This document shows positions 22,796 through 35,720 of a stretch of DNA of 50,454 nucleotides, piece by piece; position 1 is the stretch's first letter, and each line of letters starts with the position of its first letter. This DNA is from Sphingomonadales bacterium (GTDB lineage Bacteria; Pseudomonadota; Alphaproteobacteria; Sphingomonadales; Sphingomonadaceae). Made by a program: the position numbers and the translations under genes. The stretch covers positions 1 to 50,454 of the forward strand of contig JANOTI010000018.1 in assembly GCA_031416255.1 (NCBI GenBank), read 5' to 3'. The notes beneath the pieces are model-generated. The model was not told the origin of the DNA, searched no databases, and was given only the letters and a program-made list of their open reading frames with translations.

Positions 22796-22880
22796 ACCGT
22801 TAGCCCGAGCCTGTCGAAGGGGGTCCCTAAGGAGAGCGCTGGGCTGTGGGACGTGCTTCGACAGGCTCAGCACTAACGGT
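22796..22880. repeat. Palindromic intergenic repeat, type A copy 1
   Basis: ACCGTTAGCCCGAGCCTGTCGAAG ... CTTCGACAGGCTCAGCACTAACGGT between convergent genes. Confidence 0.9.
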
Positions 22881-22906: not shown

Positions 22907-23425
22907 TTACGCACCAGGCAACCGGTAATAATCAGCCAAGCGGTCCAGCGCGATCCGCAGCACGAGCTTACCCGAACGTGCGGGCCAGCCCATCGATTTC
23001 TCCGCCACCGGCATAGCCTCGCCCGCGCAGATTACGCGCCACGCGATGTCGGACAGATCGCGCCCTAACGCCGCAACACCGCCATCGAAACGCTGCTTTG
23101 CATTCAACATCCGGTCGGTCGGATTGCCATGCGATGGCGCACTTCGTTTACCACGCGCCATCGCCATATGCTCCCAAGACATCGTTACACGCGGTGCCAG
23201 CCCACCCTGTTCAAAATCACTGCGCAGTTTTTCACCAGCCAAAAACTGGCGGTCGGTCAAATGACCATATGTGTGAAGCCAGGCTAAAGGAGACTCAGCC
23301 AAGTTTACCGTTACGGTTCGTTTGGGGCGTTTCGAATGGCTGCGACCGAACTCAGGATCGGGTAAAGCACGCTCTACCAATGGCCTTGGATCTTGAAACA
23401 CTGGGGCGGTCGATTTTTTGCGCAT
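22907..23425 (-). CDS. DUF6456 domain protein (GafZ / GafA C-terminal-like GTA activator candidate)
   Basis: NLAESPLAWL..HL..RQFLAGEKLRSDF and E..MGWPARSGKLVLRIALDRL motifs; AAGGAG RBS. Confidence 0.8.
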   Translation of the reverse strand: MRKKSTAPVFQDPRPLVERALPDPEFGRSHSKRPKRTVTVNLAESPLAWLHTYGHLTDRQFLAGEKLRSDFEQGGLAPRVTMSWEHMAMARGKRSAPSHGNPTDRMLNAKQRFDGGVAALGRDLSDIAWRVICAGEAMPVAEKSMGWPARSGKLVLRIALDRLADYYRLPGA

Positions 23426-23439
23426 ACTATCTCCTTTAG

Positions 23440-23504
23440 ACGAATCATCACAAACGACTTGCCAATGACGTGCGTTTGTAGGACAGTAAAAAACCTATTT
23501 GGTT
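23440..23504. promoter_or_regulatory. Divergent DUF6456/XRE control region
   Basis: ACGAATCAT 23440-23448; ACAAACG/CGTTTGT inverted repeat 23450-23479; TTTGTAGGACAG 23475-23486; AACC-N5-GGTT 23492-23504. Confidence 0.65.
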
Positions 23505-23514
23505 GGAGAAAGAC

Positions 23515-24078
23515 ATGCTCAGCCGCGTTCGCGAAGTGCGCAAAGCCAAACGCCTCACCCTGTTCGACGTTGCCGAACGCTGTGATCCGCCGACAACAGC
23601 CCAAACCATCGGACGTCTGGAAACAGGCATGCGTACATTGTCACTAGGCTGGTTGAACCGCATTGCCGGTGCACTTGGGGTTGATGCCAGCGAACTGGTT
23701 CAATTGCCCGATCAGCAAGAGCTACCCGTAGCAGCGTATCTTGGCGTCGATGGGGCACAAGCTCCTGCAAAGGCCGATCTGCTGCTTGCACCGCGCCTTC
23801 TAGGCAAAATGCTGGGCTTACGCGTTACTGACAGCATTGGCGATTACCGGCGCGGGGATGAGCTTTGGTTAGAGCAGCTATCGCCTGAACATTTTGGCGA
23901 AGCGCTGAATTGCGATGTTCTGGTGCCCCGTCCAGCAGGGCGCTTTCTCTTTGGTCGGCTGCTAGGGCGCGAAGATGGCAAGTTGCATCTGCTGCCACTG
24001 GCGGCGGGGGCAAGACAACAAGTCGTGGCTGATCCTGTGTGGATCGGGCGCGCCGTCAAGCTTGTCCGCTCGCTCTAA
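23515..24078 (+). CDS. XRE-family HTH transcriptional regulator with S24-like C-terminal domain
   Basis: VREVRKAKRLTLFDVAE..TTAQTIGRLETG.R.LSL.WL..IA.ALGV; start at ATG 23515 after GGAG. Confidence 0.9.
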   Translation: MLSRVREVRKAKRLTLFDVAERCDPPTTAQTIGRLETGMRTLSLGWLNRIAGALGVDASELVQLPDQQELPVAAYLGVDGAQAPAKADLLLAPRLLGKMLGLRVTDSIGDYRRGDELWLEQLSPEHFGEALNCDVLVPRPAGRFLFGRLLGREDGKLHLLPLAAGARQQVVADPVWIGRAVKLVRSL

Positions 24079-35682: not shown

Positions 35683-35720
35683 CTGTCCTACAAATAACCA
35701 CATTGGTTATTATGATTCGT
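35683..35720 (+). promoter_or_regulatory. Putative GH108-holin promoter/operator
   Basis: CTGTCCTACAAA 35683-35694; AATAACCA-CAT-TGGTTATT 35693-35711; -10-like TATGAT 35711-35716; ATGATTCGT 35712-35720. Confidence 0.7.

Follow-up and report, generated by a model that had tools for sequence, protein, structure and literature searches.

In Caulobacter, the circuit that controls the gene transfer agent (GTA) CcGTA has been described in terms of the repressor RogA (Gozzi 2022, PMC9632790), antitermination by GafZ (Tran and Le 2024, PMC11150451) and a further CdxB layer (PMC13236601); what we say of these and of the other regulatory systems holds for the portions of the papers at hand. In those portions, GafZ alone failed to induce the GTA and 494 of 759 GafZ homologues had an adjacent GafY (Gozzi 2022, PMC9632790). 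Homologues of gafA, annotated as DUF6456, are given for 196 of 208 genomes that carry a GTA, taken over all orders, in the available text of PMC9765227, and those of sphingomonads are already published. For Hyphomicrobiales, the accessible text of PMC9638019 places a mucR or HTH gene upstream and describes occasional loci without a DnaA-like gene, while that of PMC10883770 does not mention gafA, gafZ or rogA. The GTAs of sphingomonads have been recognised at the level of sequence and seem to be under strong selection (Kogay and Zhaxybayeva 2022). Going by titles and the starts of abstracts, we found no report of the induction of a sphingomonad GTA, and the literature yielded no description of the XRE repressor, operator or layout presented below, with the proviso that Figure S2 of PMC9638019 may show the XRE family.

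The locus described here lies in a window of 50,454 nucleotides (the whole stretch of DNA that was analysed) from a Sphingomonadales bacterium, which is contig C18 of a 2.59-Mb assembly estimated to be 94.5% complete. It consists of a gafZ-like gene encoding a DUF6456 protein and of a gene for an XRE/cI-like regulator (xre). That this pair belongs to a GTA circuit in some form is very likely. As to its role, comparison of sequences makes it probable that the pair is the control switch of an RcGTA-type GTA, in which XRE would repress the switch, the head-tail operon and the lysis genes through the palindrome AACC-N5-GGTT, and the short GafZ, once repression ends, would act as antiterminator for the head-tail operon.

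The gene pair and the GTA genes of the genome

An earlier note on this DNA had placed a DUF6456 gene and an XRE gene head to head, 89 bp apart, amid housekeeping genes, and the ORF and Pfam evidence bears this out (Table 1). The ATGs of the two divergent genes are separated by 89 bp (23426-23514), the neighbours encode an ABC-F ATPase, a glycosyltransferase, an aminotransferase and SecF, and no phage structural gene adjoins the pair. The DUF6456 match in the window is the only one of the whole genome. A prophage origin of this copy was rejected, neither protein having a match in 50,697 phage records; on the three IMG/VR contigs that hold XRE, the same switch is accompanied by GTA head genes. 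We also noted a long imperfect inverted repeat (REP-like, 22800-22880 of the window) in the gap where the ABC-F and DUF6456 genes converge, and a similar element is inserted in the switch region of another locus (L033).

Table 1. Genes and promoter elements of the putative switch and of the lysis cassette, in window coordinates
Feature	Position	Strand	Evidence
gafZ-like gene (DUF6456, 172 aa)	22907..23425	-	PF20057, 133 bits (cut-off 26.3)
XRE/cI-like regulator gene, 187 aa	23515 (ATG)..24078	+	Pfam HTH_3/HTH_31 at residues 8-66
Putative XRE operator AACC-TATTT-GGTT	23492..23504	.	48/59 family loci versus 1.2 in shuffles; XRE binding predicted
GTCCTA (within CTGTCCTACA), putative -35 position of the gafZ promoter	23479..23484	-	TAGGAMA in 58/59 loci
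TGG-CAAGTC, putative extended -10 of the gafZ promoter (TTGCCA on the + strand)	23456..23464	-	Spacing
Putative lysis promoter: GTCCTA, 17-nt spacer filled by AACC-ACATT-GGTT (35696-35708), TATTAT (-10)	35685..35713	+	Matrix hit 22.2 bits, rank 2
Endolysin gene (GH108 + PG_binding_3), 182 aa	35752..36300	+	Domain matches
Holin gene, GTA_holin_3TM family, 137 aa	36360..36773	+	PF11351, 97 bits

Elsewhere in the genome, a GTA head-tail cluster was found, split over three contigs (C206, C229 and C122), which together hold the RcGTA-type order terS-terL-portal-protease-capsid-...-DUF2460-hub-NlpC-large tail protein; the GTA_TIM family was not found in this genome. Two frameshifts in tail genes of the assembly are missing from other assemblies of the same DNA: the first, of one base, is absent in all four sequencing runs, and the second, a 10-base repeat, in two of the three runs that cover it, two of the four runs being possible sources of the assembled DNA. 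The endolysin-holin pair sits 12 kb from the switch, inside the window. The genome also holds a stand-alone terS paralogue (G000:C187 1975-2781, minus strand, L202; terS match E 1.6e-21), which is preceded by the best putative operator of the genome, and, between the portal and DUF6127 genes of the GTA cluster, a 173-aa acidic ORF with no Pfam match (L002 2389-2910, G000:C206).

The order was sampled as 200 genomes plus that of the window. DUF6456 occurs in 128 and XRE in 134 of these 201 genomes, with 100 and 106, respectively, of the 106 genomes of the window's family, and families f4 and f8 are mostly devoid of both (f4, 2/38 and 1/38; f8, 0/30). The pair is divergent within 1.5 kb in 124 of the 126 other genomes of the order that hold both genes, and in the remaining two the orientation is the same with larger insertions between the genes, these counts coming from related, non-independent genomes. 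On contigs that hold both DUF6456 and a GTA capsid gene, the latter follows on the same strand, within 20 kb downstream, in 13/13 cases from other families and in 9/33 from the window's family. In the 20 loci chosen for linkage (including the three IMG/VR contigs), xre, gafZ, terS, terL and the head-tail genes all follow in this order, and in several linked loci the stop codon of gafZ and the start of terS are 58-330 bp apart; in one further genome (L076), part of the GTA cluster is inverted. The reading of the pair as a GTA switch, put forward by the earlier note, thus draws support from the DUF6456 match, from the presence of a head-tail cluster and from the position of the pair directly before that cluster in many relatives.

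A close XRE homologue, predicted for families f4 and f8, failed to appear at E 1e-8, and DUF6456 was not found in the four f4/f8 genomes checked; with a looser search, two of three f4 genomes proved to have a distant cI-like gene ahead of the GTA. In two f4 genomes without DUF6456 (L280, G003:C1:1440500-1448500; L281, G093:C1:2981500-2999500), the GTA cluster is preceded by a cI-like gene of 240 aa, which faces genes for DUF1376 and, as a weak match, DUF6362. This cI-like/DUF1376 locus is a parallel, more prophage-like switch made of other parts. At two GTA promoters of family f8 (L066, L067), a palindrome-like CCTA-TTTA-TAGG stands upstream of TTGAC before terS, and neither XRE nor DUF6456 of the window type was found in these genomes.

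The two proteins and the missing RogA and GafY

The DUF6456 protein has 37% identity over 139 aa with the protein at the GafZ position of C. vibrioides, aligning to residues 108-243 of its 244 aa (E 2e-20), so that about 100 N-terminal residues of that GafZ are missing from the 172-aa protein. DUF6456 proteins are mostly 144-199 aa long in family f1 and mostly about 240-300 aa in other families. The kinship with GafA and GafZ that the earlier note had claimed therefore stands, while its label of activator needs refining, GafZ being an antiterminator in the available part of Tran and Le (2024). A fold search with the DUF6456 protein gave nothing at E<=0.001; its C-terminal helices have weak Foldseek matches to ECF sigma region 4 (E 1.5-2.4). 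PDB searches of the window proteins, by sequence or fold, returned no match to AlpA or Q, and sequence searches of the PDB with the switch proteins gave generic HTH matches or nothing.

The AlphaFold model of XRE, built from a 92-sequence alignment, has a pLDDT of 91.9, and its best fold matches are the lambda-186 hybrid repressor (E 2.7e-6) and LexA. The S24-like C-terminus announced by the earlier note accordingly holds at the level of the fold, with a LexA/cI-like model, but not as a Pfam S24 match, of which there is none. In the alignment, the column that we take from the LexA motifs to be the catalytic Lys is occupied by G in 73 of 92 homologues and by K in none; the presumed Ser-equivalent column holds S in 30/92, and the residue before the conserved Gly80, at the presumed scissile Ala-Gly, is A in 9/92. 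XRE hence appears to lack the Ser-Lys dyad and the scissile Ala-Gly of self-cleaving LexA/cI repressors such as lambda cI and AlpR, and to combine an HTH with an S24-like domain without catalytic residues, as RogA does. On the model and alignment, it appears to be a Cro/cI HTH joined to a non-catalytic LexA/cI-type C-terminal domain.

For comparison with Caulobacter we used the genome of C. vibrioides DSM 9893, in which the RogA query was picked by its 213-aa length and HTH-S24 domains, not by locus tag; 213 aa is the published length of RogA, and GGAA-N4-TTCC precedes the gafY of this genome. XRE was rejected as a RogA orthologue: BLAST gave no match, and a profile match reached 28% identity (E 3.4e-6) versus 45-56% for the best class-level RogA hits. 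Eight genomes hold a separate RogA besides an XRE adjoining gaf(Y)Z. RogA was found in none of the 201 genomes of the order, its search matching 76 of 251 genomes of the class (one of the 76 flagged as unpublished), and its operator GGAA-N4-TTCC is absent from 23426-23514. Conversely, XRE was not found in two Caulobacter genomes and one genome each of Rhizobium, Phyllobacterium and Ruegeria. The proposal of a GafZ-like protein with its own repressor as a sphingomonad GTA switch keeps its link to the GTA, but XRE is not RogA and forms a separate family. A second HTH-S24 cI-like regulator of this genome (L078, G000:C26, ORF 1228-1875; 215 aa), present in 34 of 61 genomes of the order, was likewise rejected as RogA, its 28% identity being restricted to the C-terminal part (E 1e-4), and is assigned to a third family.

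No gafY lies beside the pair, as had been noticed, and a profile search found none elsewhere in the genome either. This profile, made of 12 sequences, scores the C. vibrioides GafY at 115 bits; in the genome of the window it matched DnaA only, and in the 201 genomes of the order it gave 26 matches of at most 72 bits, all in 450-570-aa frames that we read as DnaA. Outside the order, the XRE family faces gafY-gafZ (L120-L123, L126, L132) or gafZ alone (L125, L127, L128), which suggests that XRE is a long-standing partner of the gaf genes and has been retained in the absence of RogA and GafY.

A palindrome shared by switch, particle and lysis promoters

The gap between the two genes had been called dense in motifs, and the density is above chance. 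Among 59 family gaps, TAGGAMA occurs in 58 (0.8 in base shuffles), TTG-N17-TAGGAMA in 48 (0.0) and the palindrome WWCC-N5-GGWW in 48 (1.2), the last also in 16 of 23 loci from other families; GANTC methylation sites are present in 28/59 family loci versus 16.9 in shuffles and in 7/23 versus 9.7 in other families. Within the palindrome, CC and GG hardly vary and form an inverted repeat, in a matrix that was symmetrised and from sites chosen by that pattern. At the switch of the window, the putative operator lies 10 bp before the start codon of xre and 7 bp upstream of the presumed -35 of the gafZ promoter.

With a matrix from 55 switch-region sites, taken from other genomes only and used at a threshold of >=8 bits, the palindrome was located 6-9 bp upstream of the -35 at 26 of 34 terS promoters (shuffles: mean 0.05, maximum 1), the other eight scoring below 8 bits. 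In most loci these promoters read TTGACA, the consensus -35, followed by a conserved CGTNACGC-like element in the spacer and by YA at -12/-11. Between promoter and terS, the genome has a terminator-like hairpin with a T-rich tail, which is not unusually stable (z -0.57); similar hairpins stand at 16 of 24 scored terS promoters, in a survey that had no control set and whose pattern missed 10 loci. Scanning the genome with an 80-site matrix from other genomes gave 112 matches above 11 bits, among which ranks 1, 2, 7 and 12 precede the terS paralogue on C187, the endolysin-holin pair (window 35694), terS and the switch, respectively, and rank 3 falls within the ABC-F gene. AACC-N5-GGTT thus stands at four promoter-like sites in this genome: switch, terS, terS paralogue and lysis.

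In relatives, 15 of 22 endolysin loci have the palindrome (0.6 in shuffles), between the -35 and a TATWWW -10, and in 4/22 of these loci TTGACA takes the place of KTCCTA. This substitution points to KTCCTA as the -35 position, and the gafZ promoter can then be read with the geometry of the terS promoter, the commonest form, TG.CAA 14 nt after KTCCTA (34 cases), having the same spacing. Since a generic sigma-70 scan detected a promoter at neither switch nor terS, the -35 and -10 assignments derive from spacing. Readings of the motifs as sigma-54, sigma-32 or ECF promoters were dismissed by eye against their usual consensus sequences. Also by eye, GTTC-N7-GTTC boxes, which we take to be the alphaproteobacterial LexA site, were seen in gafY promoters (L120, L123, L129, L130) and endolysin promoters (L210, L214, L215).

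The identity of the protein that binds the palindrome can be approached through its variants. ACC-N5-GGT accompanies a near-invariant recognition helix, TAQTIGRLE, ACG-N5-CGT is found at four of eight class-level loci with Ser for Gly in the recognition helix of XRE, and two f4 genomes have TTACG-N5-CGTAA both beside the distant cI-like gene and before terS. The site thus changes in step with the repressor beside it, which speaks against binding by CtrA or IHF. A binder other than XRE (CtrA, IHF, GafZ or the C26 cI-like regulator), with XRE as a linked neighbour or an autoregulator, would explain why TAACC resembles the CtrA half-site TTAAC (Fogg 2019, PMC6363796, in the part available), why the left half of the palindrome is better conserved than the right at some terS promoters, and why TAGGAMA coincides with the half-site of the palindromes preceding the C26 regulator. 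We hold this to be very improbable, because the CC and GG form a near-invariant inverted repeat, the palindrome changes with the adjacent repressor and persists in four of six genomes without gafZ, and no CtrA box (TTAA-N7-TTAA, at most one mismatch) is present at the switch or lysis promoter. As to the C26 regulator itself, TAGGA-N4-TCCTA palindromes lie upstream of it, their half-site being the TAGGAMA of the GTA-related promoters, and an exact TAGG-N6-CCTA precedes it in 12 of 25 loci.

In the mechanism that we favour, a dimer of XRE would bind AACC-N5-GGTT. The palindrome lies between the pair and before particle and lysis genes, which makes the pair the likely on/off switch of the GTA, and the putative operators at the head-tail and lysis promoters suggest that XRE probably controls both directly. 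Binding would repress, most clearly at the promoters of the lysis genes and the terS paralogue, whose -35/-10 spacer is occupied by the palindrome, and less clearly at those of gafZ and terS, where the palindrome stops 6-9 bp short of the -35, on the upstream side. Repression would be lifted by a non-proteolytic route, not by RecA-driven self-cleavage, and GafZ would be made; it may then load at the CGTNACGC-like element in the -35/-10 spacer of the terS promoter and take RNA polymerase past the hairpin before terS, as in Caulobacter. The lysis genes would be derepressed directly, alongside the GafZ-driven head-tail operon. GafY may be dispensable here because the terS promoter has the consensus TTGACA.

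Several points weigh against this mechanism. A site upstream of the -35 at gafZ and terS also fits activation, the genome's own switch site ranks 12th of 112, behind a match within the ABC-F gene, the hairpin before terS is of ordinary stability, and eight terS promoters fall below the matrix threshold. The GafZ-like protein, moreover, is shorter at its N-terminus than Caulobacter GafZ, which by itself did not induce the GTA, has no fold match at E<=0.001 and is only loosely tied to the particle genes. A dual-role XRE, activating the gafZ and head-tail promoters in GafY's place and repressing itself and the lysis genes, would account for a site that is upstream of the -35 at the former and spacer-filling at the lysis promoter, for GafY not being found in the order and for the poor -35 and -10 matches of the gafZ promoter; the set of marked promoters moreover resembles the Caulobacter GafY set (gafYZ, cluster, accessory genes) in the available text of PMC11150451. 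We nevertheless find such a role unlikely: with TTGACA in most loci the terS promoter would need no activator, XRE also adjoins an intact gafY-gafZ in at least six class-level loci, and none of the 41 capsid-negative genomes or of the six without gafZ lacks it. Equally doubtful is an extended form, according to which a single non-cleavable cI-like protein replaced RogA and GafY, turning on gafZ and the head-tail operon from a site upstream of the -35 and holding lysis off from the same site in the lysis promoter, the XRE-gafZ-terS block, which neighbouring families retain, being the surviving cI/Q/late-promoter core of a prophage ancestral to RcGTA-type elements. If true, such one-protein control would act as a timer, with particle assembly before release.

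The capsid-negative genomes bear on whether the switch still serves a GTA. In the window's family, 41 of 106 genomes have no capsid match, 37 of these also being without the DUF2460 tail gene. The retention of XRE in all of them fits what is expected of a repressor kept to silence lethal remnants. DUF6456 is kept in 37 of the 41 (two of them broken) and is thus only loosely tied to the particle genes; between two capsid-negative congeners, its dN/dS is 0.07. Five hand-picked capsid-negative genomes contain the composite site 11 times (reversed controls, 0), four times before endolysin-holin pairs and twice before proteins that look terS-like by eye, and the operator-marked endolysin-holin pair is kept in four of the five. 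This DUF6456 retention, the dN/dS value and the persisting operator-marked lysis genes would suit a former GTA switch now serving mainly particle-independent, AlpR/AlpA-like programmed lysis, or a slowly decaying relic. To either we give a very small chance: the genome of the window has a full head-tail set, its operator and promoter are intact and its frameshifts are absent from other assemblies, and by eye there is no evident hairpin before the endolysin gene for GafZ to act on. In addition, a congener with a capsid match is just as close as the two without one; the losses may thus be of recent date or reflect gaps in the assemblies. In many capsid-negative genomes of several genera (e.g., G039, G079, G147, G153, G160, G178, G196), the terL match ends at about residue 154 of 438, and others have a full terL despite the lack of a capsid match.

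Comparison with described circuits

On the favoured reading, with XRE as repressor and GafZ as antiterminator, this would be a GTA circuit that does without RogA and GafY; its contiguous repressor-antiterminator-late-operon layout bears on the prophage origin of GTAs. Since one gene could be deleted, another overexpressed and a 13-bp site mutated, sphingomonad GTA production and its trigger become directly testable.

In lambda, the logic of cI and Q couples a repressor to an antiterminator. The pair is proposed to work like lambdoid cI/Q/pR'-tR' and like AlpR/AlpA (PMC7969949, available part), a cI-type repressor controlling the gene of an antiterminator and also binding the target promoter. 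As with AlpR/AlpA and lambdoid Q, the putative loading element occupies the -35/-10 spacer, and the first gene is preceded by a terminator-like hairpin. AlpR self-cleaves after DNA damage in the available account, whereas XRE has no catalytic Lys.

The DUF6456 protein resembles the C-terminal part of R. capsulatus GafA, and in both systems a separate lysis cassette appears to be under the same circuit (PMC6363796, PMC9638019, parts available). Unlike GafA, it has neither the DnaA-like N-terminal domain nor the central region, and its switch has no CtrA box and has a dedicated adjacent repressor.

The likeness to the RogA/GafY-GafZ/CcGTA system of Caulobacter extends to a GafZ-homologous DUF6456 regulator, a non-cleavable HTH and S24-like repressor placed upstream in the circuit, an element in the -35/-10 spacer, a terminator-like structure close to where the head-tail operon begins and the RcGTA-type gene order. 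The differences are that the repressor is of another family, is encoded beside gafZ and would use an operator other than GGAA-N4-TTCC; that GafZ is shortened and RogA and GafY were not found in the 201 genomes of the order; that the putative operator also stands at the head-tail and lysis promoters, whereas RogA, in the portion of the source at hand, binds only the promoter of gafYZ and one other; that the terminator-like hairpin lies before terS and not, as in Caulobacter, after the first gene; and that lysis here is of the holin-endolysin type, where Caulobacter uses LypABC.
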